Under the pieces are notes generated by a model that saw only the letters and a program-made list of their open reading frames with translations, made no database searches and was not told the DNA's origin. Source: Cenococcum geophilum (Eukaryota). Taken from it: a stretch of 64,000 nt of DNA. This document shows, one piece after another, positions 2 through 60,800 of the stretch. The stretch's first letter is position 1. Every line of letters begins with the position of its first letter. The stretch covers positions 15,128,001 through 15,192,000 of the forward strand of contig CP158635.1 of the NCBI GenBank assembly GCA_050273025.1, read 5' to 3'. The position numbers were made by a program, and so were the translations under genes.

Positions 2-1765
2 GATTCTTCGCACGATGATGTGCCTGAGGTGGTGGTCAGGAAGGGGTGGGTCCAGTTATTTGGAGATAACGACCACCTTCTATTTGGCTCCCCTAACACA
101 AACGTCGACCTCTCTACTCTACACCCTGAACCAGTCCAGATTTTCAGGCTTTGGCAGATTTACCTGGACAACGTCAACCCGCTGCTCAAGGTCACACATA
201 CTCCCAGCCTGCAAGGACGCATCATAGAAGCTGCCAGCAACGTGACAAATATTAGCCCCACCCTAGAGGCGCTCATGTTTAGCATATATTGCATGGCCAT
301 TCTTAGTCTTGTCGTGGACGACTGCCAGGCCATTTTTGGCTCGCCAAAGGAAGATCTTTTGACGAGGTTTCAGTTCGGCTGTCAGCAAGCTCTATTGAAC
401 TGTGGGTTTTTACGGTCCAGCGATCGCGACTGCTTAACCGCATTATATCTCTATCTAGTAAGTCTGTCGGGTGGTTGTGTTTATGCTTTCTAATGATTTT
501 AGGTCTCGGTTAGACCCAGTACAGTTCCTCAATCTCTGTCCGCCATGCTTGGCGTTGCGATTCGCATTGCGCAACGTATGGGTATTCATAGCGAGTCGGC
601 CCTAGCTAAATGCACCACTCTCGAGGCCGAACTACGCCGAAGACTTTGGTGGTCACTCGTACTCTTCGACACTCGCATCAGCGAGATAGCCGACCACCAG
701 ACCGCAACGTTAGCTCCCACCTGGGACTGCAGGATTCCTCTCAACGTGAATGATTCTGACCTCCGACCAGAGATGAAGGAGCCACCAGCGGTTCAGGGGA
801 AATCCACCGATGCACTGTTTGCTGTTGTGCGCAGCGAGCTTGGGGAGTTGGTCCGCCACACGATGTTCCACCTTGACTTTACCAGTCCGGCTCTGAAGCC
901 CATTTTCAAGACTGTTCAGCACGGTCTCGTTCCAGAAATTGCTGAGCTAGCCATCCTAGAGAAGATGATTGAGGACAAATATCTCAAATTCTGTGACCCA
1001 GAGAATCCACTCCACTTCATGACGATCTGGTGGACGCGAGCATGCCTTGCTAAATGCCGCCTCCTGGAACACCATTCGAGATATTCTAGCTCATCCGTGC
1101 ATCAGACGGACGCGCAGCGCGACGCTGCCATTTCCCATGCGCTTCGCATGCTTGAGTGCGATACTAAGTTCATGACCTCACCCCTTACCAAGCGATTCCT
1201 TTGGCTGGCTCACATCCACTTCCCATTTCCCGCATACATTCAAATCGTTCAAGACCTGAAAATGCGACCTGGCAGCGAGCAAGCTGAGCAGGCTTGGGAG
1301 GTTATGAGTGACAACTACGAGGTTCGGTTCGTTTTTCTATACTACAGAGGCGAAAATCCTTTCTTCAAAATTTTCACCAAAATTGTCCTCCAGGCTTGGG
1401 AGGCTCGCGAGGCAGCTTACAGTCAATTAGGAGAGTCGTTGATGCCACCAAGGATTGTGTCATCCATCAGACACAGAGTGGCTCAAATAGCCCAAAATGC
1501 ACAAATTGCTGACACACAACAACCCAACGGTGTTATGGGCATGGGCATTGACAACTTTCCGATGTCGATGCCGATGGGCTCTGGTAGCCACGGCCTGCTG
1601 TATAACATGGGAGGGCAAGGCGAGCACGGAGTAATTGGGCCGGGAGTATACCCTAACATGCCCGGACAGGCTCCGTTAGACGTTGATGTGAATCATTTGG
1701 ACTGGGCTGCGATGGACTGGGGTTTTGGGGGTGTGGATCCGGGGGTCTGGGATGCGGAGCTTTGA
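2..1765 (+). CDS. Fungal-specific transcription factor (Fungal_trans / middle homology region of Zn2Cys6-type regulators); 5' end lies outside the window; intron 458..502
   Basis: ORFs 20..493 and 545..1765 join in frame across a 45-nt intron (GTAAGT at 458, CTAAT branch at 490, TTTAG ending at 502), giving ...LYLYL/VSVRPSTVPQSLSAMLGVAIRIAQRMGIH...ELRRRLWWSLVLFD. Typical motifs LWQIYLDNVNPLLKVTH and PLNVNDSDL are present. The frame is open to the left edge. No RIP damage. The Zn cluster itself is not in the window. Confidence 0.92.
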
Positions 1766-2062: not shown

Positions 2063-3573
2063 TTACTGGAATTTATATTTGAATTTACGAAGGAGTGCCT
2101 TAGTGTGAAAGATATGTGGGTTCTTAAAGTTCCATCCTTTCCTTTTAGTTTCTCCTATTTATAACGTTATAAAATAAGTACTAATGCTTACCTGCTAACT
2201 AGAAATACCTTCCCTATCCCTGAAATTATCTACAACCCGTCCCTTACCTTTAGCCCCTATGTTTTCCTTCTTAGTCTCCTTTTTACTAATTGGGCGTTTA
2301 TAGTATATAACCTTATATCTCCTAAGGAGCTAAGTAAGCTCTATATTAAGCTAGGCTATAATAAGCTACCGTTATGGCTGAATTGGAAACTAGACGATAT
2401 TCCCGTGTTCCGCCGGTTAGTAAAGACTCTAAATAGCTGGACCATTTCTCGTAACGAACCTCTTTTATATTCTACCCTTGTACCCTAGACCAAAGGGCTT
2501 AGGGAGATTATTGGCTTTGCTTAGGTCTCTTGCCTATATTTGCTTAGATATGGTGCCGGAAAGGCATTTAATAAGAATAGTAAGCTCCGTTGCGACCGGC
2601 CTTTTTATTAAAAGAACTAAAGAGAAATATAGGCAATATTAGCAAGGCTATATAAAACCTAATAATGCAGCATGCCGATATACGAACGTTCTTAAGGTAC
2701 TACCTATCGCGGCGTATTATAGCAGACACATAGGCGATTATCTAAGGCCTTTAGCCCTAAGATATATTAATGCGGGCCGCTTATACTATAAGCTGTTTAA
2801 TTAATCCTTAATAACCGCGGCGGCTTATAACAGAACAATCTTTATTAGTTAACAATTATTCTACTATCCGTTCTCTACTTAAGTAAAGAAAGTAACTTAA
2901 ATACCGTTTTAAAGGTAAAGCTATAAAATATCTAAAGTATAAGGCGCTTAATGGCGAAATTAATAGCGAAAGGTAACGTTAGTGATATACACTTCTTAAA
3001 GATATTAAGAAGACTTGGGAATAGGAGCAACTAATACGTAATATTAAACTGCAGCTTACTGGCGATTAAGTTAATATAGAGGCTGGGGTAATAATAGATC
3101 TCTATAAAGGCATGTTATTAAAATAGAAGGAATTAGTTAATGCGGTTGTTAGCCTACTAGGTACTATATTTAAAGAGGAGATTTATTAACGCGATAGGGC
3201 TAATTATATGGTTATGCAATACTATAAGGTTAAGGAAGGTAGAATATACCCTACCGCTTTTAAACTTTATAAATAATCTAGTGGTTATATAATACTAGTT
3301 AAGACAATAGATAAGGCTAAGATTAACTCTTAAGTTAAAGCCTTAGAAGTAGTTAAAGTGTTAGTATATAGTAAGAAGAGGCTAAAGATATATTTTCTTT
3401 ATCTAGGTAACGAAAACCTATTAATTAAATAGCGTATATATTTGTTTTATACCCTAGGTAATTTTAGTAAATACTTTAAGTAGAAGTACCTTGCGAATAT
3501 TAGGGAAGGGGAAAAGATCTAATACAACCTCTATTAGGTTATTTTGGCGCATAAAATGCACTTATAATAATAT
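2063..3573 (+). pseudogene. DUF3435 tyrosine recombinase (Starship captain family) with C-terminal Cys/His region; RIP-inactivated and 5'-truncated; introns 2116..2202 and 2580..2632
   Basis: Translation gives LLEFIFEFTKECLSVKD/intron/NTFPIPEIIYNPSLTFSPYVFLLSLLF...DIPVFRR...IIGFA*VSCLYLLRYGAGKAFNKN/intron/NISKAI*NLIMQHADIRTFLRYYLSRRIIADT*AII*GL...LMRAAYTISCLINP**PRRL. These match DUF3435 motifs as I know them (PEIIxDPSL, YxLRYGAGKAF, MQHAxxxTFxxHY). Both GT..AG introns keep the frame. Stops are TAA/TAG as expected from RIP. Confidence 0.85.
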
Positions 3574-3994
3574 TGTTACGGACCTTGTATTGGCAGTAGT
3601 AGAACTACTAAGGAGAGATATAAATGGACTAGTAGTAGAAGTATGGGAGGTGCTGGAACCAGTTAAACTATAGGACGAGGGGTAGCCAAGTTATATAGCT
3701 AGTTACGTTATAAGTTCGGAACGTAAAAACGTAGGAACGTAGAAACGTAATATACTAACATACTAACGTACCAACGTACTTAATACATTTCTTAGGCGTA
3801 GTATTGTATATTTAAAGGACTACAGTCCCTACTTAAATAGTTCTCTTCTTTATAGTAAATCTTAGAATATAATTAGAGTTAATCTATTAGGTAACCACTC
3901 CATAAGTTATTATTATATTATTAACTTCTTATTTACCTATATACCTAGCCTATTAATAAATCTACCGTAGTTTCTACTATAAGGCTTTATTATA
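3574..3994 (+). repeat. 5' LTR of Gypsy-1 (421 bp)
   Basis: Direct repeat of 18628..19046; differences are mostly C/T and G/A transitions. Confidence 0.95.
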
Positions 3995-6900
3995 TATTTA
4001 CTACTATAGTTATAGTATTAATAAAGTTAAATAATATGCTACTAAAAGTAGTAGTTATAATAGCGTTAACGGCAGCAACTATTAGGATTAAGTAATAATA
4101 CTAGTATAGCAAATACTAACTCTTAGCTAGTTACGGTTGGACAACTATAGGAAATAGTTAATTAATTAATAAATAATAATAGGATACTTAAAGAAAGAAT
4201 TAATAGAATTAGAGTAGTAAAGGTTAAGCTACTATCTATTAAGCAATTCTTAGGGAAGAAGTTAAAGCTTAAGGGATTTCTTACATAAATGCACTTTAAG
4301 GTTACGTAAGAAGGAGTAAAGCTAGTAACGCCTATAGATTAAGTCGTATATATAGAATTGTTTCTAATAAAAAGGGCACTTAAGTAGTTTAAGCCTTATT
4401 TAACAGAGGTATAGGAAAACGGTATAGTAACTATTAATTAGGAGGTATAGTATATATTTACTAGTTAGAACGGGTTTGCGGAATACTTAATATAAATATA
4501 TAAAGACTTAGAGGTAACTACTATAGTAAAAAGAAAGCTTTAAAACCTAGTATAAAGAACTTTAGTAATTAAGTATATAATATAGTTTTAAATATTAGTA
4601 ATATAAGTTAAATAGAATAATAAGGCGCTTATAGTATGGTATAAATAGGGACTTAAGGCAAAAGTTTAAAATATAATTATCCTAATAGAGGATACGGATA
4701 CCCTTAAAGAGTTAATTAACTAAGTAATTAAGATTAATAATAGGATCTACTAGAGGGAATAGACTAAGAAGGGTTAGAATAAAGTTTTATAGTTATATAA
4801 GGCGTAAAGCACGTATTAACTAAGTTAGAAACTATAGTATAGTATAAAGCTAATAGACCTAAGCGGTACTAAAAAGGGCTATAAGAGATGGACTAAGCAA
4901 CTATAAAAATCTAGAGGATAAAAATTAAGTAATTAAAGGTCTAAGGAGCAGAGGCTAAATAAGGGATTTTAGTAGTAGAAGATATTTAGGCGGACTTTAT
5001 AATAAGAAAAATAGTTTAAAAATGAAGCTTATTTAAATTATAGGAAATAGGGTTATTTTACTAGAAATTATAAAGATAGTTAAAGTAATTATATGGTAAA
5101 GGAAACTAGACTAGTAAAAGAGATATATATATATATATAAAGGGATAATAGTATACTATAAGGAATAAAAGAGTATTTAATTAAGGGTATTACGTTTTAT
5201 AATAATAACATATACTAAATTTATAAAGATACTAAGTATGACGTAAGCTATTAGCTATAGGAGCTAAAATTATTAAAGTTTAAAGGAACTAATAAACTAT
5301 CTTATAGATTAGATATTAAGGATAATAAATTTTAATATAGGTAAAGTATTTAGCGATAATAAGGCAATAAAGGCAGCTTACTAAAAATGTATAGACCTTA
5401 GAATAGTTATATTAGAAGTAAAGACTAAAACCTTTATAGAATAAGGATTAGTAATAGAAATTATAACACTATTAGATACGGTATTTATCGCTTTATAAGA
5501 CGGAAGGAGAAATATCTAATAGAAAGGATTAAGTAAGTAAACAACTACTAGTGCTAGCTTACCACTTAATAGAGGCAAAAGGCTATAGGATTAAGACTCT
5601 TAAAATAAAATAAGACTAGCTTAAGGACCTATAATAGACAACAACCAATAGAGCAGAGTAGTAGCTTAGTTTAAAGATATATAAATAAGCTTAGGGTAGA
5701 GTTTCCTAAAGGTATAAGATTCTTAAAGTAAGATAAGTAAGATTTAAGACTTTTAAAATAAGATAAAAATACTATAGAAGCCTAGTTAGACTAAGGCTAG
5801 AGTACAGCTTAAGAAAGAAGTAAGCTTAGGACTAAGATTTTAGCAATAGAATAAGGACTATTAAAGAAATTGTAAGTAAGGCTTAGTAATAGGATTAAAA
5901 AGTTAATACTATAGTTAGAAAGTAAGAAGACTTTAAGGATCTACTTATAAGGTAAGTAAATAAAGAAACTATAGAAGAATTTAGATAGAGAATTATTATA
6001 TAGTAAGAATAGAAACTAGATAAGAAATCTAGTATACTAGGTTGTATAAGGAATAGAGCACCTATATAAAGAATTACTAATAGGCTAAAGGTAGAAACGC
6101 TAAAAGCAAAATAGCTAGACGAACTAGAATAGGAAGAAGACTTAGGAATTTTAATTAGATTTAAAGAATAATATATAAAGGGCTGTTATAATATAGTAAT
6201 AAGAAGATACTTCCTTATAGATAGATTGTATATACTTAGGGAGCTATACTAAAGGTAGTATAGGCAGCAATATAATAATAAGTAGGAAGATTTCTATATA
6301 TAGCTAGATAAATAGGTTATTTAGAACCACCTAATTATAGAGAAGGCTATAACTTATATTAAGGGAGCCTTAATTATAATATTAAAAGATCTAAAGGAAT
6401 AATTAGAGGACTAATGAAGTAAAAGATATATCTTAGTACCTGCGAATAAAGTTATAACGTTTAGATTAGATAGATAGAGGTTTAGACTTAAGGATAAAGA
6501 TAAGCTTAGAGTTAACCTAAAGCACCTAGTGTATTATATATTGGCGTAGATTATATATATAGTATATATAAAAATCCAAAAGAAAAGAATTGGAAATACC
6601 CTATAAGAATATATTAGGCGCTAAAAGAGTAGTAATACTAGAATGCTAAGTATATATATAAATAGCATTTAACAGAGGTCTAGGAGTTAGGAGGTTTAAT
6701 ATTTTAACTAAAAAAATTCCTTACGAAGAATGCTTAAATAGATAATAGTAGTAGGAATACCTAAAGAATATATATCTATAGTATATTAAGGATAAAAAGC
6801 GAACTAGGTATTGGCTAAAAAAGAAGCTAAGTATAATAGGATTAAGTAGCTAATAGTTGGGAAAAGTAAAGGCCTATAAAACTAAAGAAAGCTAGTAGTA

Positions 6901-8993: not shown

Positions 8994-11900
8994 AGGTAGA
9001 CGTATTAAGTAGAAAAGCTAAACTATAAAATAATAAGAAGCTATTAGGGGTAATACTACGCAAAGATAGTAATAGATTAATTAAGTATAATTATTCTAAG
9101 ATTATAGTAACCTAGAAATATAAGTTACCGGAAAGTAATTAGATAAGGAGAATTTAAGAGGCGTAATTTAAGAATTTAGAAATAGACTAGTATAAGTAGA
9201 GAATAAATATATATATCCTAAGGGGAATAGTAGAGGAGTTTATTAAAGATTTTTATAGGGGAATAATATAAGGACATAATAGAATAATAGGCTTAGTATT
9301 AAGACTCTAAGAGGAGTATATTATTTATAGAATCTAAGGCTTAGTAAGAAAAGTTATAAAGAAGTATCTAGATTGCTAAAGAAATAAGCTAATAAGGTAT
9401 AAGCTACATAGAGGACTATAGCCTATTAAGATACTAGAAAGACTATAGGAAGTTATATTATAGAACTTTATTATAAAGTTACTAAAGTTAAGAGATTCTA
9501 TTATTAGATAGGAGTATAATATAATCTTTATAATAGTAAACAAGTTAACTAAATAGGGCTACTTTATAGTATATATAGAAAAAATCTTAGCGGAAGATGT
9601 TGCTAGAATTTATATTAATAATAATAATTTATTACTTAACGTCTAATTCAGATCCCTATTAGGCCCACGCGGACTACTCCTTATATATATATAGGGAGAA
9701 AACTCTATTTAAGAAAACCCCGTAATCTATCTTCCTGCCTTTTAGGACTCGCCTATAAGGCGCCTATAAGTTACCTATAGTGCTTTTACTACCTTACTTT
9801 TTAGCCTTTTTAGGAACCACTGCTGCCGTAATAAGCCTACGGACGCGCTAGTATTATAAACTTTACTCTACTACTATAGAGTTATTAGGGGGCGCCCGTT
9901 ACTTACCCTCCTACCCTTTATTACTATTTCCCTTATAACCCGGAACTGGTTTAGTATATTTTAGCTAATAAGCTACTAGGTAACCGCCTTAAGACCTTTT
10001 TATATTAAGAGTAGTGTATTATAGTTCTCTGTGCTAGCTACTAAAAGTATTACTTCTTAGTTAGTACGTAAGGGGCATAATAGTATTATATATTTTAGTG
10101 TCTGTTTTAGCTAGCTATATTTATATCTTAGGCTACCTACTAGGATACCTACCCGGTAAAGCCAGTCTTTTAGTCCTATTATTCCTGTTCTTAAAAGTGT
10201 CGCTATTATATTTTCTGCCTTTATTAGGCCTTCTTAGAGCCCTAAAGTGTTTACCCCCTATAGCGTTAACTATGCTACGGCTTAGGTTCCTCTTACCTTA
10301 GTTAGCCTCTATACCTTTAACTCCTATATACCTCTTTAGTGTTAGTCTAACCAATATTATATTACGGTAGATAAGTTTCCTAGCATTCTTTTATACTCTA
10401 CTTTAGCTCCTTTCTCTTACTTATTATTATCTTTACTAGCCTTTTACGCCTTTCCCTTCCTCCTCTATATGGGCCTAGGCCCTAAAGCAGCACTATTTTT
10501 CTTCTGTTTTCTTTACCTATTTCTTTAATATATCTTCCCTACTTTAGGGTTATTAGTTTATTCTCCTATAGGGCGCCTTAGAGTCCCTCTATAGTTTATT
10601 TAGGCGTATCTTAATATACTTTATAATATTAGAGTTGCGTTTATTTTAGGCCCTTTATATTATAGCGGCTTTAATATATAGTTATAGGGGGGGAATATTG
10701 GCTTCCTTCTTAAGTAGTGCTGTAGCCGTTTGCTTATATCCGCCTACCATACTCTAAAGGTAGGCTATTTAGACCTTTTAGAGTGGTTTAAGGAGTGACT
10801 TAAGGGGGCCTTTCTTAGATTCTCTAATGGCCCAAATACTGGACTTATACGTTATGGTTGGCTAGATAACTACTATATATAGTAGGCGTAACCTCTAAAA
10901 GCATAGGCCCTATATAGAATTAACAATCCTAGATAATGCGATATACTATACTTAGCCCTTATAGGCCGCTTACGCCGCATATACGCTCCACCGGAGCTTA
11001 CTATCTACCTATACTCCTAATACCCGTAGGCCCTAAACTAGTTAACCCCTAAAGCCTTAAATGCGGATTATATGCTAGAGATCTACAAATTAATTACGTT
11101 TTCTTATAAAATGGATTAGCTGGTATTTCTCTAGTAAGAATTAGACTCTATATTGTCTTGCTTATTTTATATAGGTATTATAAGCTTTCTCTAGTATTTT
11201 GCAATTCTCTACAGCTAATGGCCTATATATAATTAGGTTTATATTATTAATAAAGCCTATCCCCTAGGTTGCCCCTTCCTTAAAGGAGTTAAGTAGGTTG
11301 CTTATAAAGAAAAGGAAGAGTATAGGCAAGAGGGGTAATCCTTATGGTATTTCTGTTGTAACTGTAATAGGGGGGCTCTAGTATCTACTAAAGACTAGTA
11401 ATGTTTCTTTCTAACCTATAAACCCTTAGATAAATTATATAATCCACTTTAGAAAGCCTTTTGCCCTAAAGATATATAGGAGACGCTTATAGGGTACGTT
11501 ATTATAGGCGCTACTAATATCTAGGCTAAGCATTAATACTATAAAGTCCCTTCGCATCGCCTATGTAGATTTAATAGTAGTAGCGAGTAGTGTAAGTGCT
11601 AATAGTGTTAAGCGGTTCTTTCTTACCCCTATTTAGCTCTATAGTAGTAGGGCGTGTTCCTTAGCCATATCTGCTATGCGGTCCGCTATTACCTTTTTTA
11701 GGATCTTACTAAGGGTATTTTTTAAGGTAATAGGGCGGTAGCTTCCTAGGATTAAGTAATTTGCTTTACCTTCTTTTTATAGGATAACCGTCGTTATGGA
11801 TCTTCTAAGTTGTGGGTAGTAGCCTATAGTAAAGCATACTCTAGCTATATTTATAAGCTAGGGTGCTATAAGTGGTCTATAGGTCTTTAAGGCCTTATTT

Positions 11901-14246
11901 AGAATCCTATCTAGACCTAGTACTATATTATTTAAAAGGCGGCTAATAGTTCTAGCTATTTCCTCTATTATTATATCTCTGTTAACCCATAGGTAAGTTA
12001 CCAGTACTTTACCTATAATATTACTAAGGTCTACTAAAGCCGGTTAGGGGAAGAACCTTTCTATAAGGATCCTTACCTTCTTATTATTATTATTAGTGGC
12101 CTATAATTCCCCTACTCTTTATAGGGGTAGTAGGTATAAGTCTTTTGCTAGTTACCCTGCCTTTTTCTTTGCCTATTTTGCTATAGCCCACAGGCCTTTA
12201 TTATAGGGGAGGCTTAGGTTAAAAGTATGCTTATTTATAAATCGTCTCCAGTTATTTCTTGCTTCCTTTTTTAGGGTATTCTTTAATTAGTTTTTTGTGT
12301 CTTTATATCGTCTCTTATCTTTAAGGTTGTAGCTGCTTAAGTATTTCCTTTTTACTTGTTATTGGCTAGCTATAAGAACCGCGTATTATACGGACTATGC
12401 GTATTACATATAAAGGCCCAGTTTAAGACCAGGTAGTGCTCTTTTAGCCTATTTTTAATTGCTACCTAGATCCTTTCTAGTCTTCGGTTAATTTCCTTAG
12501 GGGTGGTTAATAAGCCTTGCTTATTTAGTATTAGGTGGATTTCTTCTAGGTCTTAAAGTTATTATTTAACTATATTAAGGAAACTGTCTGCCTTAAGCAT
12601 CCTTATTACGTATCTTTTGCTATTTAGTTACGCCTTAATATCTAAATCTAGCTGTATCTGGATGGGGATATAGTCTAAGGTAAGTGCCTATTCTTCCTTA
12701 GGGTTATACCTTTTAAGTCTCTAGTATAGGCCTTCGTCTATAAATATAAGGTTAATTATACTTTTAGTAGGTCCTTATTGCCATATAATTACTCTAAGGG
12801 GGGTGGCTAGCTTAAGGCCCCAGGTATCTATAGCTTTTAGTAAGCACTTTACCTATTGTTTAGCAGCGACGTAAATACCCCCCTACCGCGGGTGGTAGAG
12901 GTTTATGTCTCCTAATAGGATAGACTCTATACCTTTGGTTTTAAGTAAGCTTATTACTAATATAATATTCTCTATTTATGGGAACCCTTTAACCCTAGGG
13001 TTATATACATTAATAATTTATACCGGTCCTCTATATGTCTAGATTATTATAACTATAATATCTAGATTAACTGCCTACTATAACTATAAGGATAGGCTAA
13101 TAGTCTTACTAATTATAAAGCATACGCGTATAGCTGCTTTTAGTTTGTATAGGAGCTGGAATCCTTAAGGGTAGTATATCGATTATATATAGGTATTATA
13201 GTATGGCTCTTATATAGCAAGGATATAGTATATCTTTAGGTCTAGACTGTCTAGTAAGGGCCTTATAAGACGGTGGTTTGTGTTGCTATAGTTATACTAT
13301 ATAATGGATAGGTAGCGGACCCCTAGTAAGGGTTCTTCGCCTTTCTATTATTTCTTGCTTTTTCTATTTCCACTTTCTCTAGGATATTTAAAACTTCTAT
13401 CTCTTATATCTGCACCCTAGTTACTACTTATATATAGAGCTTTTTATTCCCGTGTCTTATGTTTCTACTAGCGCTTCTATATCTAAATTTGTTATTATCT
13501 CTAGTTCTTCCCCTATTCTTACTGGTTAGCTATATACCCTTTAAGAGTTGGCTACAAATTTTATATTTACCGCGTTAAGTTTAATTCTTAACTGTCCCGG
13601 TTTTAAGCTTACTATAGCTGTCTATAAGGGTCTTCCTACAGGGCGTTCTCTCCCTTATATCCCCTGTGACCCTTATATCCCTATACGGTCTAGTAATATT
13701 ACATAGCGTTACTTCTAGCCCGTTAAGGCTTAGGATAGCTAGCCTAGCCCCCTAGTATTAAAGGTAGGAAATGCTAGAAAGGCACCTGCGCCCCCCTAGC
13801 TTATTACCTATTATTTCCATTTATATAACCTAGCATACAGTTATTCCCGTAGCTGTTAAGCCCTTACCTTTTATCTCCTATATTTAATGCAGTCTTCTCT
13901 CTTCTACGCCTTATATATACTTTAGTGGCAGTTTATATATTTTATTTAGTCTTAATTTAAGCAGTGTCTTATATTGTAGGGGCCTATATAGTGGCCGTAG
14001 CATACCTATACTACACATGTGGATTAGGTATGCCCCTATTATATATAGCGATAACATTATTCTAGGTGGAGTCTATAGTTATAGAGCCTTGCGTTATATA
14101 TAAGGCCATTTATAATAATACCTTTTTAAATAAGAAGTTTTTATATTCCTAGTATATATATGCTAACAATAAGGGAGCTATGCGTTTAACTAGCGTTTCC
14201 CTAGCAAGTCTCTAGCAACCCTTATATTCTTTTATTATTCTTATTA

Positions 14247-16098
14247 ACGTAGTCGGCAAGCCAACGGGCCATGCAAGCCTTTGGGCCACCCCACCAAACC
14301 ACCAAGGATAAATATAGCAAATTACTCAACTACGAACGATTGTATTTGGTGTAGCTATTTACTAGCTACTTATTTAACGTCTAGGGCACGTACGTGCATT
14401 GTGTTCTATTGATTTGCACATGCTATACTTGCGCACTGCCCGTTGCGGTCGCTCAGCCGCTGCCTCTACTGCCCCCTCTACTGCCCTTTCCTAGACAGCT
14501 TGTGCACGAGATAGGCCTTCTGCTCCTGATAGAACACCCCCCTTAGCTATATACGTGCGCCGCTATGCTCTCTTCCATTTCTGGCGCTGGTTTTCTATAT
14601 ATAGCTTCTCATTTTCACTTGCAAGTAGGACAGCGCTTAATATTGCCATTTCGCACCCCTTGATAAGCTGGCTAAGGGCTTATTCTGTTAGACTTAGTAG
14701 GCTATGCGTACGCCGCCTAAGATAGCGCCTTAGTAGAGCCGTCTGCTGTTATAGCTTAGCAATATTATAGGGTGTTTCAGCTGCCTAAGATGCATTTAAC
14801 TGCGGACGGCGTTGGGGTAATGGCGTCTAATATTCAGTGTGCAGCTATACTAGCACGCGGTCAGGGCTATATGGAACTAGGCCAGTAGCTGCGAATCCTG
14901 CCAGTATATTGTTCCGATGTAGTGCTATAGGCCTAGCCTGCCTATATAGTGGTAGGAATTCGTGTTTATTAATATGGTTAATGCCGCGGCCCATAAGCTG
15001 TTTAACGAGGCGTCCGTACGATTGCTTAAGGACCGAGAAGCAGCCTACATCCAGCGGCTGTAGTAGATGCAACGAATGCGCTGGCATACAGAGGACGACT
15101 ATCTGATGATCCAGGCAGTACCGATCAAATTCAGGCGATACGTGACTGTTGTGGCCATCTAGTACTAGCAGCCGATACGTGCCAACCGTGTGATCCTTTG
15201 TATGCTTATTAAAAACCTCCGTTAACTAGGTTAGGCTAATCTCATTTGTCGTCTAGCCATTATTGCTAACACTAATTAACTAGTTGTGTGGGATAATATT
15301 ATTCTTATACCAAGCAGCTTGGTGCATTACTGCCTTAAAAATAATAAGTGGCGGAATTGCGACCCCTAGGGCATTAATATATTCAATAATTGTAACCCAT
15401 TCTCAATTGCCTGGCTATACTATTCTAGGCCGGCCAGCCCTATTAGTTCTAGTAATAACTTTTATAGTTGCAATAACACCTATCTAGTAGCCAGTTTTAT
15501 TAAAATTCTAAGTATCCTCGTTAAGAATCCCATATTAAATTTTTATATTTTAGACGCGTTTAAACCAGGCTCGAATAAGTATAGGATCCTCGCATTTAGC
15601 ACGCTGGTAGTCGTACTTGCGATTCCATTTAGATTATAGGTTATTATGGCGCTTAATAAAGTTGTGTACCCATTGCTCGCCAACTAGTTGTGATTTAGTG
15701 TGCTAAGTAGCCAAAAGGCTAGCTATCTGCCGTACGGTAGCAACCCTAGGTGGCATACCGCGTTAATCCATTAATAGAATCCACTGCTTAAGGCTCTCTT
15801 CTTGCACTGGTATAAGACGGCGATTTGGGGCAGTAGAACCGCGTCTTAGTTTAATGCCTTTATTGCGTTACTGGGCTGTTGTTCGGGGTACATTATATGT
15901 CTTTACGGCAGATCGGAAACTTAAGATTTGGCCTTGCTTATAGGCATTAAGAGCTAGAATAAGTCTACCCTCTTGAAAAAGGGGTTTTCTTATTGTGGTG
16001 TAGCCATTGAAGTAATAGTTGAGTAACGCGTCGCGTCTTTGGCGATTTTGATGGGGTGGCCCGGAGGCTTGCATGGCCCGTTGGCTTGCCGACTACGT
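14247..16098 (-). mobile_element. Fot1/pogo-type (Tc1-mariner superfamily) DNA transposon, 1852 bp, nested in LINE ORF1
   Basis: ~52-bp TIRs beginning ACGTAGTCGGCAAGCCAACGGGCCATGCAAGCC, with TA TSD at 14245..14246 and 16099..16100. Confidence 0.95.
14374..16007 (-). pseudogene. Fot1-like DDE transposase (HTH_psq, CENP-B HTH, DDE_1, C-terminal zinc knuckle), moderately RIP-damaged
   Basis: QEGRLILALNAYKQGQILSFRSAVKTYNVPRTT; RLLVLDGHNSHVSPEFDRYCLDHQIVVLCMPAHSLHLLQPLDVGCFSVLK; YSMCKSIEHNARTCP. Contains internal stops and a frameshift near the ATG. Confidence 0.92.
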
Positions 16099-17889
16099 TA
16101 TATACTTAGTTTATATTTTCTTATTAAAGCTATTAGATTTGGGTAATTTTAAGTCTTAGTATAAGGTATTCCGTTTATTTTACTATTTTATATATAGTTG
16201 CTGTATTATCTACCTAGTATTCCTTTTCTACCTTAAGGTTTAGGGGAACCGCTAGGACTTTAACTAGGTAATCTTTATAGAGCACTTTAATACCAATACG
16301 TTCTCCTAGCCTATCCCCTACCCTAATAGCTCGTTTCTTTGCCTATTAGTCCCTTAGGGTAACTCTAATATCTCTACTCCTAAGGTATTGGATTATAACA
16401 ACGTTATAGACCTTTTTATAAATCTTTATAAGGACTTTTGTTTCTAATTATCCCCTAAGCCCCTCTACTTTTTCTATACTTGGTTATATTATAATTATAT
16501 ACCCAGATATTGTCTTTAGGGGGGTAGGTTCCCTATACTATAGACGCGTAGCTATAGCGGCCTAGGTACGGTTCGCCGGTAAAAAGGAATTATATTTATT
16601 TTTAATTTTACTTAGCCGTTAAAGGATTTAATTAAGGGTTTGCTAGAGGGGTGCCTATGGTTTACTGGACTAGCGGAGCTATTCTACTAGCTGCATTAGT
16701 TCGTTATAGCTAACGGTTACTCCCCTATAACTACAAATACTAAACGCGTCTAATAGGCTTTGTATTTTATTAGATGCCTTCTTAATAGAGGTCTTTCCAC
16801 TCTATAGTATAGTATTCGCCCGTTCTTATTATGGAGGGCCATTGCTAGGCGTGGTTTTGGTAGACGCGCGCGAGTGCGAACTACCGTCGTTTAACGTATG
16901 CCTCCCCTGCAATGCATGCATCTTAGGGGGATTCTCTAGGTGTTTTTCAGGGTTCTTTTAGTTGGTTTTAGTCTTTTTGGGCCGGGTGCAGCAAGAGCTC
17001 CCAGAATTTATATTAAAGAAGTGTTTATAAGATATAAAGCACTAAGTAAAATTATATTAGATAGGGATTTAAGATTTATAGTAGTATTTTAAGAGGTATT
17101 TTTTTTAGCGGAATAGGGAGTTAGAGTAGTAATTTTTACTATATATTATCTATAGATAGATAGGTAAGTAGAAAGATTAAACTAGATACTAGAATAGTAT
17201 CTAAGTTATTATATTAATTACGCATAGAATAATTAGGTATTATTATTACTAATAATATAGTTTATATATAATATAACACTATAAGAAGGTATAGAGATAT
17301 TACTATTTTAGGCAAATTATTGATATAAGCCTAAAATATTGTTGTTATTATAATAAGTAAAGAAAATAAGCGGTATAATAAAGTAGAGAATAGAGACTCT
17401 AATAAATCTTTATAAGGACCTTTATTTTATAGCAAGATTAATATTAAAAAAAAGGTATTATAATACTAAGAAATCTAAGGAACTAGATCTTAAGGAGGAG
17501 GATAAAGTATAGCTATTATATAAAATTTTCATAAGCTAACAACTAAGTAAGAAGTTAAACTACGTTAGATTAGGATTATTTAAAATTATAGCTAAGATTT
17601 TAGAAGTTATATATAGACTTAACTTACTAGCGAAAATAAAAATCTACCCTATATAGTATATCGCGATGCTAAAGCTAGTGTACGGAGATATAGAGCTATT
17701 AGTTTATAAAGTAGATATATATAAAGGACAAAAAAAAGATAAATAGTAAGTTTTAAAGATTATTAGTTATAAGGACATTAATAATAAAATATAGTATAAA
17801 GTAAAGTAGATAGGCTATAATAAGATTACCTAGAAGTTACTAGAGAACCTAAAGAATTCTATAAAAAAAGGTATAGAAGTATTTAAAAA

Positions 17890-18519
17890 AACGGGCTAGG
17901 TAATATTAAGAAGGAGCTAAAGATAAAGGAATTAGTTAAAGGTAATAGGCGAGCTGGATTATCTAGGGGATCTACTACTAGTATATTAGTTGTTTCCGCC
18001 TTAGCTTAATTAGAATCCTTTTTAGCCTCCTTAACCTTAAGCTTAGAGAGACCTTACTCTATAAGGTGTAGCTCTTTTAAGTATACCTTTTTATATACTT
18101 TTATTAAATAAGATAATTAAGTATAAGTATTAAGCTAAGCCTTTAGAGCCTAAGACGCCTTATTAAAATAACGTTAGACCTTAATAAGAGCCTTAGCTAG
18201 CTTACTCTTTAGTCTTTTAGCCGCTACTAATATATAAGACCCTAAAATAGATTAAATAAGAAACGAGACGATTATATAGAATTATAAGACGTATATACTT
18301 AATATTAAAAACGGATTAAATATTACAGGATGATCGCATGTTTGCTCGCGTATACTTAGTATAGGAAGAAGGTTAGTGACTAGATAGAGCCGCGATCGTA
18401 ATATATACTAACTTTTTCTCCATATAATAAAAATAGGATAGTATAACTTTACTAAGTAAAAGAATAAATATTACTAGCTAGTTATAATAATTAAACGCAG
18501 AGGATTTAATAGGAGGTAT
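17890..18519 (-). pseudogene. Antisense accessory gene of Gypsy-1: Zn(II)2Cys6-like domain, one intron, coiled-coil
   Basis: Minus strand reads KVILS(C)FY(C)MEKKLV(C)ITIAALSSH*PSS(C)TK(C)TRANMRSSC, where bracketed C = TAT from RIP of TGT. Spacing is Cx2Cx6Cx13Cx2Cx8C. Homologous to 58335..59018. The left boundary is approximate. Confidence 0.72.
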
Positions 18520-18627
18520 TAAAAATAATAAAGGTTATTAAATTAAGAATAGAAATACTATACCTCTAATAAATAACTTAAAGATAAGGGATATCTTTAA
18601 GGATAAAAATAAAGAGGAGGGGGATAG

Positions 18628-19046
18628 TGTTACGGATCTTATATTAGCAGTAGTAGCACTATTAAGGAGAGATATAAATGGACTAGTAGTGGAAGTATAG
18701 AAGGTGCTAAAACTAGTTAAACTATAGGATAAGGGGTAGCTAAGTTATATAGCTAGTTATATTATAAGTTTAGAATATAGAAATATAGGAATATAGGAAC
18801 GTAATATACTAATATACTAACGTACTAAAGTACTTAGTACATTTCTTAGGCGCAGTATTATATATTTAAAGGACTACAGTCCCTACCTAAATGGTTCTTT
18901 TTTATAGTAAATCTTAGAATATAATTAGAGTTAATCTATTAGGTAACTACTCTACTAGTTATTATTACATTATTAACATTTTATTTACCTATATACCTAG
19001 CCTATTAGTAAGTCCACCATAGTTCCTACTATAAGGCTTTATTATA
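18628..19046 (+). repeat. 3' LTR of Gypsy-1
   Basis: Direct repeat of 3574..3994, preceded by the polypurine tract and followed by the AATAT TSD. Confidence 0.95.
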
Positions 19047-19081
19047 AATATGCTAATAATATATATAGTATAGTCTTATAG
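19047..19081 (+). pseudogene. Displaced C-terminal tail of the DUF3435 gene
   Basis: Removing the Gypsy element and one AATAT copy rejoins ...HKMHL**Y to ANNIYSIVL* in frame (RIP-corrected HKMHLQQHADDIHGTVS*-like), with the stop at 19079..19081. Confidence 0.75.
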
Positions 19082-21044: not shown

Positions 21045-21807
21045 TGTAACGAAGCCTTATAGGAAATTCTATAGTAGACTTGTTAATAGGCTAGGTATAT
21101 AGGTAAACAAGAAGTTAACAACGTAATAATAACTAGTAGAGTAGTTGCTTAACAGATTAACTCCAATTATATTCTAAGATTTACTATAAAGAAGAGAAAC
21201 TATCTATAGAGACTATGTGTCTTTAAATATATAACTCCTCCCCATAGTAAAGGGTTTAGTAGCAGGATCTATAGGAGGTAACTCCTACTAAGCTCCTAGA
21301 AAAGAGATATTAGTAAGTAAAAGGACAGAAATAAATTACAAAAGGACAGGGAAAGGCGTTAGGATTTCTTATTCCTTATAGTTTTCTACCGTTTTCTCAT
21401 TCCCTAGTAGTTGCTTATAACTTAGTATTTTACTAAGGAACTGTAAACCCCTAGTTTAGGGGCTTATAAACTACTAGGACATAGTTACTAGTACATATTA
21501 AGCTGCCCTAAGGGATTCATGTATATAGGACTATAGCGCCATAGCCTAGAGGCTGCATGCGCAGTATTGTACGTAGTATAATACAATGGATATTAAAAAA
21601 AAAAAAAAAAGGGTTTAGTACGTTAGTACGTCACATTTCCATATTCCCACGTTCCTACGTTTTAAACTTATAACGTAACTTATTACGTAACTCGGCTACC
21701 TCTTATCCTATAGCTTAATCGGTTCCAGCGCCTTCCGTGCTATTTTAACCAACCCGTTTATATCCCTTTTTAGTAGTTGTACTACTGCCGATATAAGGTC
21801 CGTAACA
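21045..21807 (-). mobile_element. Solo LTR of the Gypsy-1 family, containing a 346-bp retro-insert
   Basis: Termini TGTAACG...CGTAACA and 5-bp TSD GTTTC (21040..21044, 21808..21812). Both ends align with the reverse complement of 3574..3994. Confidence 0.92.
21262..21607 (+). mobile_element. Poly(A)-tailed TPRT-type insertion (5'-truncated LINE 3' end or SINE-like element)
   Basis: A16 run at 21595..21610 and a 13-bp flanking duplication AAAGGGTTTAGTA (21249..21261, 21608..21620). Removal brings the solo LTR to ~404 bp, close to the 421-bp LTR size. Confidence 0.82.
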
Positions 21808-45676: not shown

Positions 45677-46078
45677 TACCTATCTACCTATTAACTTACC
45701 TACCTACCTACATCGCCTACCTATTTGCATCGCCTACCTATCTACATCTACCTATCTACATTTACCTACCTATCTACATCTGCCTACCTATCTATATTTA
45801 CCTACCTATTAGCATCTACCTACCTATCTACATCTACTTACCTGTCTGCATCTACCTACCTATTTATATCTACTCGTCTATATCTACCTACCTATCTATA
45901 TCTACCTACCCGTTAGTATCTACCTACCTATCTACATCTGCTTGCCTATCTGTATCTACTTACCTATCTACATCTACCTGCCTATCTATATCTGCTTACC
46001 TGTCTGCATCTACCTACCTATCTACATCTACCTACCCATTAGCATCTACCTGTTTATACCTACCTGTCTATACTACCT
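45677..46078. repeat. CTAC-rich degenerate ~18-bp minisatellite (TCTACCTACCTATCTACA)
   Basis: Directly visible tandem array with almost no G on the + strand. Confidence 0.85.
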
Positions 46079-46122
46079 TAATTCGATCGATTAATCGAAT
46101 CGTTTATAGTATTGGCTAGCTA

Positions 46123-46872
46123 GTCGTTGTCGTCTGGCTCTGGCGACGGTTGTCTGGTTCTGGCGACGGTCGTCTGGTTCTAGCGACGGTCGTCTGGCTC
46201 TAGCAACGGTTGTCTAGTTCTGGTAACGGTCGTCTAGTTCTGGCGACGGTTGTCTGGTTCTGGTAACGGTCGTCTGGCTGGCGACGGTTGTCTGGTTCTG
46301 GCGACGGTCGTCTGGTTCTGGTAACGGTCGTCTGGCTGGCGACGGTCGTCTAGTTCTGGCGACAGTCGTCTAATTCTGGTAACGGTCGTCTGGCTAGCGA
46401 CGGTCGTCTGGTTCTGGTAACGGTCGTCTAGCTGGCGACGGTCGTCTAGTTCTGGTGACGATCGTCTGGCTTTAGCAACGGTCGTCTGGTTCTGGTAACG
46501 GTTGTCTGGCTGGTAACGGTCGTCTGGTTCTGGCGATGGTTGTCTGGTTCTGGTGACAGTCGTCTGGTTCTAGCGACGATCGTCTGGCTCTGGCAACGGT
46601 TGTCTGGTTCTGGTAACGGTCGTCTGGCTAGCGACGGTCGTCTGGTTCTGGCGATAGTTATCTAGTTCTGGTAACGGTCGTCTGGCTGGCGACGGTCGTC
46701 TGGTTCTGGTAACGGTTGTCTGGCTGGCGACGGTCGTCTGGTTCTGGCGATAATCGTCTGGCTCTGGCAACGGTCGTCTGGTTCTGGCGACGGTTGTCTG
46801 GCTAGCGATGGTCGTCTGGTTCTGGTAACGGTTATCTGGTTCTGGCGATGGTCGTCTAGTTCTAGCAACGGT
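46123..46872. repeat. Minisatellite of mixed 20-bp and 18-bp units (CGGTCGTCTGGTTCTGGCGA / CGGTCGTCTGGCTGGCGA)
   Basis: Directly visible period-20 array with interspersed 18-bp variants. Confidence 0.92.
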
Positions 46873-47003
46873 CCTCTGCTGGCTGCCGTTCTGGTGCCTC
46901 CCTAGGTAGGGAGGATATAAAGAAGGAAGGAAGGGTAAAAAATAAGGTGGCTACATAGGGTAGAGGCACGTGTAGAGGCTATCGGGAATATAGCGGGGAC
47001 CCG

Positions 47004-47318
47004 ATGCAGAGCTTCGTGTAGAGCCTCTGTACGCAGAGCTTCTCGCAGAGCTTCTCGCAGAGCCTCGTGCAGAGCCTCTATACGCAGAGCTTCGCGCAGA
47101 CCCTCGCGCAGACCCTCGCGCAGACCCTCGTGCAGAGCTTCGTGCAGAGCTTCGTGCAGAGCCTCTGTACGCAGAGCTTCGTGTAGAGCCTCGTGTAGAG
47201 CCTTATGCGAAGCTTCGTGCAGAGCTTTGTGCAGAGCCTCTATGCGCAAAGCTTCGTGCAGAGCCTCTGTACGCAGAGCTTCGTGTAGAGCTTTATATAG
47301 AGCCTTATGCAGAGCCTC
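47004..47318. repeat. Minisatellite of 12-bp and 15-bp units (GCAGAGCTTCGT / GCAGAGCCTCTGTAC)
   Basis: Directly visible; the minus strand translates to EALH/EALRT repeats. Confidence 0.9.
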
Positions 47319-47331
47319 CAAGTAATAAGAC

Positions 47332-56483: not shown

Positions 56484-57801
56484 ATACGGACCACTCGCTT
56501 ATAAACTACGTTAGCTAATCTTATAACATTTCTTAGAGTTATATCTCCCCTATTTAAAGTATTAACGATTTCTAATACTATGATTTCGCGTAGATAACTA
56601 AAGTATCTCGTCTTATGGTTGCCTTTTTATTATATAAAAAAGGACTTAAGATGTCTTTAAAGCCCTAGTTATAAATTATTTATATTTATATTTAGCCCTA
56701 TTATAGTAATATACTAGTATCTTACCTAGGTTTTAGCCGTAGATATACTACTAAAGAGACTTATATTATACTATACTAATAATCCCTATCTCTTTTGCCG
56801 TTATACTAAGATATATAAACTACTTAAAGATATTATAATAGAGATAGCTAAGAGGAGCAAACTGTGTAAGTAAGGAGATTAACTAGGAAAGGCATTAAAG
56901 GATTTATTAGAGGAGATATTAAGGAGAAGGGTATATAAGAAAAAGGTAGATCCTACTATAGATAGAGATCTTAAGAGGTCTAAGGTATAAGAGATTTTTT
57001 ATAGGGAAAGATGTTTATAATTATAATTTTATTTTTTAGCATTTATTAAGAATTAAGGCGTTAATTAGGATTTCTTTAGCTTAGTATTTTATTTCTATCT
57101 AGTTGCTTCTATATTAAGAATATCTTATTATTATTTACGTATAAAGGAATAAGTTTTTATATATTAAATTAAAGTTAGAGCGACTTGCTTATAGTATAGA
57201 GGTACGTTTTAAAAGTCTTTACTACTAAGAAATTAACTATCTTAGCTTACCGCCTTTTAAATCTAAATGTCCTCCTATTTTAGGGTGTAAGTTAACTCTA
57301 AATTTTATATTAATAGGGTAGGAATGTTAAAAATAAATATAGAATCTACCCCTTAATATTAGCCTAAGTTTTAAGTAAAAACAAGATCTTATTTTAAGAA
57401 CTAGATCCGATTTTAAGCACCGTATTTTAATTTTAAAGACTATATCCTAATTCTGGGTTCTAGCTTAAATTATAATCCTAAAAACTAGATCTAGTAAATA
57501 GCCTTATAAGCGTAGCTATAAGTTTAAGCCCCTTTACGTAACCTAACTACTCTACCCTACTATACTAAAATAGACGAATAACCGCTATATATAATGCGTA
57601 GAGTCTTCCCTTAACGTAAGGCAGATTAATAGGAGTTATTATACCGCCTATATAAGGCGGAGCGCTTATAAAGGGCTTAGCTAGAATACTAATTAAACTA
57701 CCCTATAACGCACTAATAGCACCTTTACTATAAATGGGGAGTAAATATATAAGGTTAACTGGTTAAAATAAGTCTACTACTTAAGCAGTATCCGGCTCCG
57801 T

Positions 57802-60800
57802 TATAACGGAACCTTGTAGCAAGAACTACAATGGGTTCGTCAATGGGCTAGGTGTGTAGGAAATGCAAGTACAAAAGTCAACAACGTAATAACAACTAGT
57901 GGAGTGGTTGCCTAACAGATTAACTCCAATTATATTCTAAAAATTACTATAAGAAAGGAACTATCTAGGTAGGGACTAAGGGTCCTTAAATACACAACCG
58001 TACTCCTAAGAAAGTTATTACTCTATCTGCTCTACTTGCTCTGCTTACTCTATAATAGATCTTATAGATTATACAAATTATACAGATTACGTTACGTGAC
58101 TCTGCTTACTATTCCTTATCATATAGTTCTATTGGCTTTATTTTAGACTATACCTAAATTAACTAACTAGCTTCTTTTAACTCTTCTCTAAGTAGTCGTA
58201 ATATTGTACTTAAAGCGTCCATAACACCATCTCCCTCCTCTTTATCTTCGTCCTTAAAGATACCTAGTATCTTTAGGTCGTTTACTAAAGGTATAATATC
58301 CGTCTAATTAATTTGGTTAATATTATTACTTATAATGCCTAAAGCATCCTCTCTTTCTTCTATAGCTCACCGGTCTTATACTATTGCTACAATATTATCT
58401 CTTAGTAAAATAATGCTATCTCCGTGTTCTCGTTATGCGAAAGAGGGGTTAGTTTATATTGCGTTAGCAAGCCCTTTGTCTTAGTAACCTTCCTCTTACT
58501 TAGAGTGCACTAGAGCAAATATTTAATCGTTTTATAATATACGCTCTATTTCTGACGCTAAGTATACGCGTCCTATAACCCTTAGTAGTCTTTAAGTTCC
58601 CTAAGTAATTTATTATAGGGTTTTATATTTAATTTAAGGCAGAAAAACTTAAGGGTAATCTTGCCGCGGCGCTGGCGAAAGCCTATCGTTGTTCCAAAGA
58701 ATCTGCTTATGCCCTTAAGGCTTAGTAGTCTACCTTTATAAAAGTTTAACGTCTCTAATATGTTTATAAGAAGGTTTATTTTAAGGAGTAAAAACTTATA
58801 AAATAAGGTTTGCAGGAACTAGGTAATAAAAGAACAGATTCTCCTCTAATAGAGAAGGAAACAGATCTAAGTAGTTCGGCAACTGCTCTTCTTAGGTCCC
58901 CCTTAGGTAACTTATTCTTTAGTAATCCTTCTTTATTAATACTACCTAACCTAATCTCTTCTAATACTCCTGTACCTTTCCTATAACGTTCTTTAAATTC
59001 TCTAATAGCTCCTAGGTAGTCTTAGTGTAGCCTATCTACTTAACCTTATACTATATTTTGTCGTCGATGTCCTTATAATTAATAATCTTTAATACTTACC
59101 ATTTGTCTTCTTCCTGTCCTCTATATATATCTGCTTTATAGACTAGTGGCTTAATATCTCCGTGTGCTAGCTTTAGCATCGCGATATGCTATATAGGGTA
59201 GATCTTTATTTTAGCTAGTAGGTTTAACTTAAATATAACCAGTAAAATCCTTTATATAATTTTAAAAGGTCCTAGTCTAACATAGTCTAATTTCTTACTT
59301 AGTTATCGACTCTTGAAATTTTTGTATAGTAGCCATACTTTATCTCCCTCCTTAAGATCTGGTCCCTTAGATCTCTTAACATTATAGTACTTTTTTATTC
59401 TCTCTTATACTTTCTTTACTAATTTCATAAGGTTTATATAAAGATTTATTAATGTCTTTATTCTCTCTTTAGCTATACTACTTATTTTCTTTACTTACTA
59501 TAGTAATAATAATGTTCTTAGCTCATATCTATAATTTGCCTTAAATAGTAATATGCCTATTCCTTCTTAAGGTATTACATTATATATAAACTATATAACT
59601 AGTAATAGTAATACCTAATTATTCTATGTATAATTAATATAATACCTTAGGTACTGCTCTAGCGTCTAATTTAACCTTTCTGTTTAACCGTCTGTCTGCG
59701 GATAATATATAATAGAAGTTACTACTTAAACTCCTTACTCCGCTAAGAATACTTCCTAGAATGCTGCTATAAATCTTAGATCTCTATCTAATATAATCTT
59801 ACTTAGTGCTCTATATCTTATAAACACTTCTTTAACATAGATTCTAGCGACATCTTCCGCTAAGATTTCTTCTATATATGCTATAAAGTATCCCTACTTC
59901 GTAAGCTTATCTACTATTACTAAGATCGCGTTATAATCTTATCCGGTAATAGGATCTTTTAATTTTAGCAACTTAATAATAAAGTCCTATAATATAACCT
60001 CCTATAGTCTCTCTAGTATTTTAATAGGTTGTAGCCCTCTATATGGCTTATACCTCGTTAGTTTATTCCTTTAATAATTTAGATATTCCTTTATAACCCT
60101 TCTAGCTATCCTCTAGATTCCATTAATAATGTACTCCTCCTAAAGTCTTAATACTAAGCTTGTAGCTTTATTATGTCCTTAAGTTAGTCCCTTATAAAAG
60201 TCTTCTATAAACTGCTCTACTATGCTTCTTAAGATATACTTTACTTCTTAATTTTTATATATATATCCGTCTATAGATCTTCTAGCTATACCTCTAGAAT
60301 TCTTTATACCTAAAAGCTTTCTGGTATCTTATAGACTTTCTTTAGTTTATTATCTTCTTAAGTTGCTATAATTTTTAGATAATTATACCTAATTAATCCG
60401 TCTATATCTTTTCGCAATAAAGCCCCTAATGGCTTTTCCTTATTTTATAGTTTAGCTTTACGGCTTAGAGTATCTGCCCGCATATTATCTATACCTTTAG
60501 TATACTAAATCTTAAAATAGTATTCTGTAAGTATCTCTGCCTATCTAACCTATCTTTAGTTAAGTTCCTTCGTCATTAGGAATCCTATTAGGTTTTTATA
60601 ATCCGTCTTAATTATAAATAGTTTCTCTATGCCTTATAAGAATGCTTTTTATTTCTTTAATACTATAACTATACCTAACAACTCCTTATTGTAGATATTA
60701 TAGTTTAACTCTAGTAATATCATCTTCCAACTATAGTATGCTACTAGGTGCTATTTATTTTAATGCCTTTATATAAAGCATACCCCTAGTATATAGTCTA

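Follow-up and report, generated by a model that had tools for sequence, protein, structure and literature searches.

The 64,000-nucleotide stretch of the Cenococcum geophilum genome analysed here (contig CP158635.1, positions 15,128,001 to 15,192,000 of the forward strand; hereafter the window, with coordinates counted from its first letter) contains two copies of a Ty3/Gypsy chromovirus. In each, a two-exon reading that runs antisense to gag-pol occupies the space from the chromodomain to the 3' long terminal repeat (LTR). The explanation we favour, with a probability of about 0.78 for layout, protein and class taken jointly, is that both stretches are copies of a real third gene of this element family, killed by repeat-induced point mutation (RIP). 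The copies in the window are dead and unable to make protein. An element-borne antisense gene with an intron had been predicted before any comparison with other copies was available, and that claim is supported by the data presented below, the position of the intron being deduced from sequence.

The window consists of fungal DNA with long AT-rich tracts (GC content 0.24–0.40) that are rich in TpA. Abundant TpA is a mark of RIP, a process that produces only G to A and C to T changes. Copy 1 lies on the + strand, and copy 2 on the − strand, extending from the window end; the reverse transcriptase, RNase H, integrase and chromodomain of copy 2 are readable in the − strand translation. Both copies share the order chromodomain, antisense open reading frame (ORF), polypurine tract and 3' LTR, with DNA that is only ~60–70% alike in the region of the antisense gene. 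The polypurine tract of copy 2 (58227–58243, − strand) is conserved in copy 1 and is located immediately upstream of the 3' LTR (57790–58226, − strand). This LTR starts with TGTTATGG on the − strand at 58226, and was delimited by alignment with both copy 1 LTRs and by blastn of copy 2 against the window; its lower end is approximate. The 3' LTR of copy 1 lies at 18624–19058 (+ strand) and has a partner 5' LTR at 3570–4006, the direct repeats being 87–90% identical.

Read on the + strand, copy 2 displays one frame from 58338 and a +1-shifted frame from 58636. The same two frames are found on the − strand in copy 1 (18540–18250 and 18227–17892), and the exon-1 readings of both copies align at 41% identity, in agreement with the proposal that the same antisense protein underlies both. 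Exon 1 of copy 2 (58335–58569, + strand) retains an intact ATG and has acquired three RIP stops (TAG at 58482, TAA at 58485 and TAA at 58524), while a further TAA at 58593 falls within the 49-nt intron of the model. This putative intron (58570–58618, + strand) runs from GT to AG, with a TAAC/TAAT branch-like site ~10 nt upstream of the AG; the Arg codon that it interrupts is divided between C and GG. Exon 2 (58619–58986, + strand) encodes a helix rich in Ala, Leu, Glu and Arg, together with a basic cluster and a tail rich in Ser and Pro, and closes with a stop that is TAA in copy 2. The corresponding features of copy 1 are all on the − strand: exon 1 at 18291–18519, where the start reads ATA (the RIP product of ATG); a predicted 49-nt GT..AG intron at 18242–18290, with place and phase as in copy 2; and exon 2 at 17890–18241, where a 1-nt insertion has put the family stop out of frame, so that the lower end is approximate.

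Of 79 copies across the family, 16 have ATG and 61 have ATA as the start codon at 58335, and an in-frame stop occurs 10 codons upstream of the ATG, at 58305 (TAA in 73/78 copies, TGA in 3/78). The stop at 58984–58986 is TAG in 76 of the 79 copies, placing the end of the ORF there and not at 59018 as first proposed. This stop lies inside the last chromodomain codons. The 3' end of pol in copy 2 (58783–59150, − strand) comprises the chromodomain (~58975–59150) and a possible tail, as judged from sense-frame codon tables and the phase of variable sites; every stop in the pol frame down to 58786 can be explained by RIP, with the first firm stop at 58783–58785. The convergent pol and antisense gene overlap by at least ~12 codons and possibly by ~68. 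The location of the gene between the chromodomain and the polypurine tract/3' LTR stands. Because of the overlap, the original description of it as lying after pol is not strictly correct. The pol frame itself seems open for ~68 codons beyond the chromodomain (58783–58986). Separately, the presumed 5' leader of the antisense gene holds a three-codon upstream ORF (58296–58307, + strand), made up of an ATG found in 31/78 copies, two codons and a conserved TAA. A three-base periodicity upstream of the ATG (58240–58330) was considered and rejected, as it rests on two columns and is cut by real stops on both strands.

The frame change between the exons requires an intron length of 1 mod 3. A guide to its position is provided by a lightly mutated database relative (P0074; 110 residues, from a 2113-nt JGI/IMG contig) that keeps six of the seven Cys described below and reads from the cysteine module into the exon-2 helix in a single frame; it may represent either a spliced transcript or an intron-less copy. 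All possible deletions of the consensus were scored against P0074, and the removal of ~52 nt near 58564–58630 was found to fit best. The best GT..AG intron that is both colinear with P0074 and frame-restoring is 58570–58618, with a score of 361. A 52-nt alternative at 58596–58647 is less colinear with P0074 (350), and another at 58605–58647 begins after an in-frame stop. Position 58569, the first base of the split codon, is C in ~69 of 79 copies. When spliced accordingly, the consensus corrected for RIP (deRIP consensus) is in frame for 206 codons plus a stop. The predicted intron is again placed at the same site in both copies, with its length (49 nt instead of ~55) and the codon it splits (Arg instead of Trp) revised.

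The central feature of the encoded protein is a seven-cysteine module, located in copy 2 at 58425–58565 (+ strand) with the spacing C-x2-C-x6-C-x13-C-x2-C-x8-C-x9-C. The spacing of the first six positions had been noted in the original prediction and is confirmed: Cys survives at C1 and C5 in copy 2 and at C6 alone in copy 1, while the other positions are TAT or TAC and read Tyr. A seventh C/Y position lies 9 residues beyond C6. Among 79 sequences, Cys is present at C1 to C7 in 49, 27, 8, 9, 68, 23 and 6, respectively, with Tyr in all others and no further residue at any of these positions. Similarly, C and Y account for nearly all residues in each of the seven columns in 148 diverse relatives (representing 50%-identity clusters). 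Since only Cys or its RIP product Tyr is seen at all seven positions, Cys is the ancestral state. Examination of the less-mutated copies did not reveal a Tyr ancestor, and where Cys survives at C4, it does so mainly in the least-mutated copies. In one database relative (P0058), two tandem copies of the cysteine module are packed into 117 residues.

A scan of metagenome contigs returned 614 pattern matches, 602 of which encode a relative, well beyond what chance would give, and 80 loci were kept for comparison. The whole of 58150–59150, from the LTR edge to the chromodomain, aligns in 77 of these 80; the other three are cut or rearranged and were omitted from the alignment. The layout with the homologue antisense beside a Gypsy chromodomain is consequently shown by 77/80 loci. 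All copies are RIP-mutated, with 29–50% of consensus C/G sites altered per copy, and exon 1 is stop-free in only 4 of 79 aligned sequences. At the protein level, a word-based search with the copy 2 reading recovered 49 short ORFs of the same family, and a word-limited search 1051 proteins. A profile built from the 18 least-mutated copies was scored against 1.84 billion representatives, and the cysteine part was matched by 190 protein clusters at 50% identity with E≤1e-3, 99 with E≤1e-10 and 3 with E≤1e-30. The 26 relatives read among the best 150 of the 190 clusters are all short, mutation-worn ORFs. Among the best 120 of the 1051 proteins, none has a precomputed Pfam domain or a name beyond 'hypothetical protein'.

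The C/Y pattern is present in 238 of 262 relatives fetched. Of these relatives, 55 extend at least 70 residues upstream, and in 40 of the 55 the antisense translation of the polypurine tract (..SLSLKI..-like) is found 56–62 residues before C1; it is recognisable but variant in most of the remaining 15 long ORFs. The constant distance of this motif in 40/55 indicates that the position beside the 3' LTR is conserved across distant lineages.

The sense frame that shares third codon positions with the antisense reading is also open over exon 1 in the deRIP sequence, and a test of strand was needed. It could be supposed that no antisense protein exists and that conservation stems from coding in the sense direction (by a sense ORF or by a pol protein with a long C-terminal extension) or from cis-acting sequence, the antisense reading being a shadow ORF. 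The open deRIP sense frame, with 3 stops over the whole region, and the possible continuation of the pol frame to 58783 are compatible with this. When transversions per site are sorted by antisense codon position, exon 1 gives 0.026/0.009/0.060 and exon 2 gives 0.036/0.032/0.100. A comparison of copy 1 and copy 2 alone gives counts of 6/7/20 and 11/19/33 for the respective exons. Variable sites on the two sides of the intron differ in phase by one base, which one continuous sense frame cannot explain.

We further considered shared variants, defined as those of non-RIP type present in at least three copies, for which ~26% would be expected to be synonymous. In the antisense frame, exon 1 shows 54 synonymous, 33 non-synonymous and 1 stop-involving variant, and exon 2 shows 89, 69 and 5, a synonymous excess with binomial p values of ~2e-12 and ~5e-15. 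The best sense frames also display a synonymous excess, with ratios of synonymous to non-synonymous variants of 43 to 43 and 78 to 79. In exon 1, however, 14 variants are synonymous in the antisense reading only and none in the sense reading only (p = 1.2e-4). Furthermore, the 97 codons of the sense frame over exon 1 include no Met, the pol frame makes 27 of the exon 2 variants synonymous and 130 non-synonymous, and the seven invariant C/Y columns would become a mix of His and Gln if read in sense. We therefore regard a shadow ORF as most improbable.

On the strength of these substitution patterns, the antisense reading is the coding one and was under purifying selection while the family spread; the selection proposed earlier is borne out by both the synonymous excess and the codon-position pattern. 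It has been raised for antisense ORFs in general (in an excerpt of PMC7264820) that an antisense transcript could act mainly as RNA, pairing with the genomic RNA and feeding small-RNA control, with the ORF being incidental. For the present family this is very unlikely as a full explanation, given that the codon-position and synonymous/non-synonymous patterns show selection on protein. Such an RNA function is compatible with a protein role and does not exclude it.

The predicted protein opens with a short N-terminal segment and continues through the seven-cysteine module into a long alpha-helix, which bears a basic cluster (8 Lys/Arg in 12 residues), and a Ser/Pro-rich tail. In the AlphaFold model of P0074 (149 rows) the helix spans residues 47–109 with a predicted local distance difference test (pLDDT) score of 94–98, consistent with the helical Ala/Leu/Glu-rich segment of the original prediction. 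The prediction is confident only for this helix and not for the Cys part, which scores 50–57 in P0074 and 43–59 in P0165, a relative with all seven Cys (40 rows; mean pLDDT 61.8).

The Cys spacing had been taken to fit a GAL4-type binuclear cluster. A true Zn(II)2Cys6 factor would coordinate two zinc ions through six Cys and, as many zinc cluster proteins do, dimerise by means of a coiled coil, here formed by the helix; the dimer would bind DNA in a sequence-specific manner, for example in the LTR. Like PF00172 proteins, the family has a fungal host and six Cys grouped as two triads of the form C-x2-C-x6/8-C, with a helix following the cluster. The observed x2, x6, x13, x2 and x8 agree with the definition CysX2CysX6CysX5-16CysX2CysX6-8Cys given in an excerpt of PMC2447501, in which x13 falls within the 5–16 range, but x13 is beyond the 5–12 linker of CX2CX6CX5-12CX2CX6-8C as quoted from PMC4025492. 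A helix C-terminal of the cluster is described for many zinc cluster proteins in the same excerpted text (PMC4025492).

Zn_clus (PF00172) weakly matches 5 of the 18 least-mutated copies, the best at 15.4 bits and E 0.021. All of these matches are below the gathering score of 21 bits, span only 10–17 residues and are out of register, with the first Cys triad placed on the second triad of the model. Relatives with 6–7 intact Cys match Zn_clus at E 1.5 or not at all. The window's own readings match no Pfam family at E≤10, and the 148 diverse relatives, searched singly, gave scattered chance families only, with no Zn_clus among the families shown (0/148) and no DUF3716. Hence no copy or relative reaches the PF00172 threshold. 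A sequence search of the PDB with two family profiles returned one chance C2H2 match at E 1.1 and no solved Zn2Cys6 chain. Moreover, the conserved seventh Cys is foreign to the motif, the Cys-domain models are of low confidence, and no regulatory or activation domain accompanies the cluster. The GAL4-type assignment thus retains its agreement with one published spacing but finds no backing from Pfam, solved structures or the modelled Cys part, and we consider it doubtful. All negative family tests are weaker than they look because RIP damage lowers profile scores.

A possible, if still tentative, alternative is that the cysteine module is part of, or descended from, the fungal domain DUF3716 (PF12511), in which case the gene would carry a transposon-associated module and would not encode a transcription factor. 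PF12511 matches 2 of the 18 least-mutated copies (13.3–13.9 bits; E 0.053 and 0.082), and the longer match covers profile positions 4–47 of 59, across both Cys triads. According to an excerpt of PMC8232023, the domain is present in REP9-1 and REP9-2 of an IS3EU-like class II transposon of Zymoseptoria. What the present module has in common with it is that of a Cys-rich fungal domain on mobile elements, with weak similarity across both triads. Against this, the best score of 13.9 bits is well below the cut-off of 22, the host here is a retrotransposon and not a DNA transposon, and no match was obtained among the 148 diverse relatives or the 10 best-preserved relatives with most Cys intact. A precomputed Pfam domain is likewise lacking in the best 120 of the 1051 relatives.

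Taking the third-gene explanation forward, the family would carry an accessory gene of ~200 codons, antisense to gag-pol, that starts ~110 nt inside the boundary of the 3' LTR and polypurine tract, contains one 49-nt intron and ends within the last pol codons. Transcription would proceed from a promoter of its own in or beside the 3' LTR, and the intron would survive retrotransposition because the gene is antisense to the genomic RNA. The cysteines may bind zinc, and the product could be a nuclear, oligomeric, nucleic-acid-binding accessory factor of the element, acting in regulation or integration. Both zinc binding and a function like that of the GAL4 DNA-binding domain are suggested by spacing and architecture, and are possible but unproven.

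To our knowledge, LTR retrotransposons rarely carry accessory genes, and for almost none of these is a function known. The layout itself is not new: a 2011 publication already described brtn, which lies antisense in the interval from pol to the 3' LTR in the Boty-like elements of Botrytis (Zhao et al. 2011, Virology 417:248, as cited in excerpts of PMC8365987, PMC4227169 and PMC7264820). The gene described here is probably of the same kind as brtn, by virtue of its position and orientation: it codes for a protein antisense to gag-pol and sits downstream of pol, next to the 3' LTR, in a Ty3/Gypsy element that has a chromodomain. No protein named BRTN occurs among the best 120 of the 1051 relatives. 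The excerpt of PMC7264820 groups Boty with plant elements bearing antisense ORFs between pol and the 3' LTR, and gives the function as unknown in all. These include Grande gene23, RIRE2, Retand and PvRetro13, which share position and orientation with the present family. According to the same excerpt, most copies in a family contain the plant ORF, its conservation resembles that of the proteins of the element itself, some products are nuclear, and the proteins show no clear similarity to others (PMC7264820). These elements belong to a different kingdom, were compared by position and orientation, and have no known sequence relation to the present family. In the literature consulted on brtn, DUF3716 and antisense genes of retrotransposons, we found no description of a seven-Cys module in such a gene, although Zhao et al. 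2011 may contain one.

Several observations weigh against the explanation of both stretches as copies of a real third gene. The spliced deRIP consensus retains two internal stops; at the first, C is found in only 5 of 79 copies, and at the second in 0 of 79, though P0074 has Gln there. While splice donors usually have G at +5, the donor of the proposed intron (GTCCTA) lacks it and is atypical. An intact copy was found neither among the 80 loci nor among the proteins inspected. The strand test is not significant in exon 2, where 24 variants are synonymous in antisense only and 13 in sense only (p = 0.10). The heptads of the helix are weak, since even the best register has hydrophobic residues at only 8 of the 20 a/d positions, and zinc binding, DNA binding and oligomerisation are without family-level or structural support. 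The likeness to brtn is one of position and orientation, and the copies here are RIP-dead. Finally, RNA data from one raw run (X21) and three contig sets were aligned at ≥85% identity. The X21 run yielded 52 reads at this threshold, none ≥95% alike, with a depth of approximately zero over the ORF, and no RNA read carries a splice joint at 58570–58618; the copies are RIP-mutated and may be silent, and this result says nothing either way.

The reads and contigs at 85–95% identity come from other copies and cover mostly the LTR. Reads of one RNA run at this similarity pile up on the LTR only, at 57854–58015, and many continue into unlike sequence; the pile-up represents LTR-containing transcripts of other copies or read-through. 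Two joints seen in contigs of X22 and X23 (58261>58380 and 58455>58826) were rejected as introns, as they look like deletion variants of other copies.

For the window itself the result is mostly one of annotation, given the dead copies and the known layout. On a wider scale, the gene is widespread (190 clusters at 50% identity), has clearly been selected, and belongs to elements with a formative role in the AT-rich compartments of fungal genomes. With its small size, putative zinc module and long helix, the protein would be an easy target for biochemistry, and could show how fungal retroelements control themselves or choose their targets. A bolder proposal, which we hold to be unlikely, is that a large Pfam-unassigned family of seven-Cys and long-helix proteins extends across a whole clade of fungal chromoviruses, maybe including brtn. 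Its members would be dimeric, sequence-specific DNA-binding miniature zinc-cluster regulators that drive or time LTR transcription or steer integration, with the antisense orientation kept as the only way for an intron-bearing gene to ride a retroelement.

The remaining features of the window lie outside the antisense gene. Copy 1 is interrupted by an unrelated insertion of ~7.4 kb (9618–17003), with a GC content of 0.35–0.44 and a negative AT skew. An isolated match to ~195 nt of the LTR (copy 2, 57804–57998) occurs at 21047–21235 with 78% identity, and may be a solo-LTR remnant. A GC-rich island (46000–47321, GC content 0.54) is located within the AT-rich region, and a 139-residue ORF on its − strand has no family match at threshold. 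The GC-rich left edge of the window (2–1765, + strand) holds a fragment of a host gene whose N-terminus lies beyond the window. Within it, the ORF at 545–1765 (+ strand) matches the fungal-specific transcription factor domain PF04082 with E 1.3e-8, a domain that is the usual partner of real Zn2Cys6 clusters.

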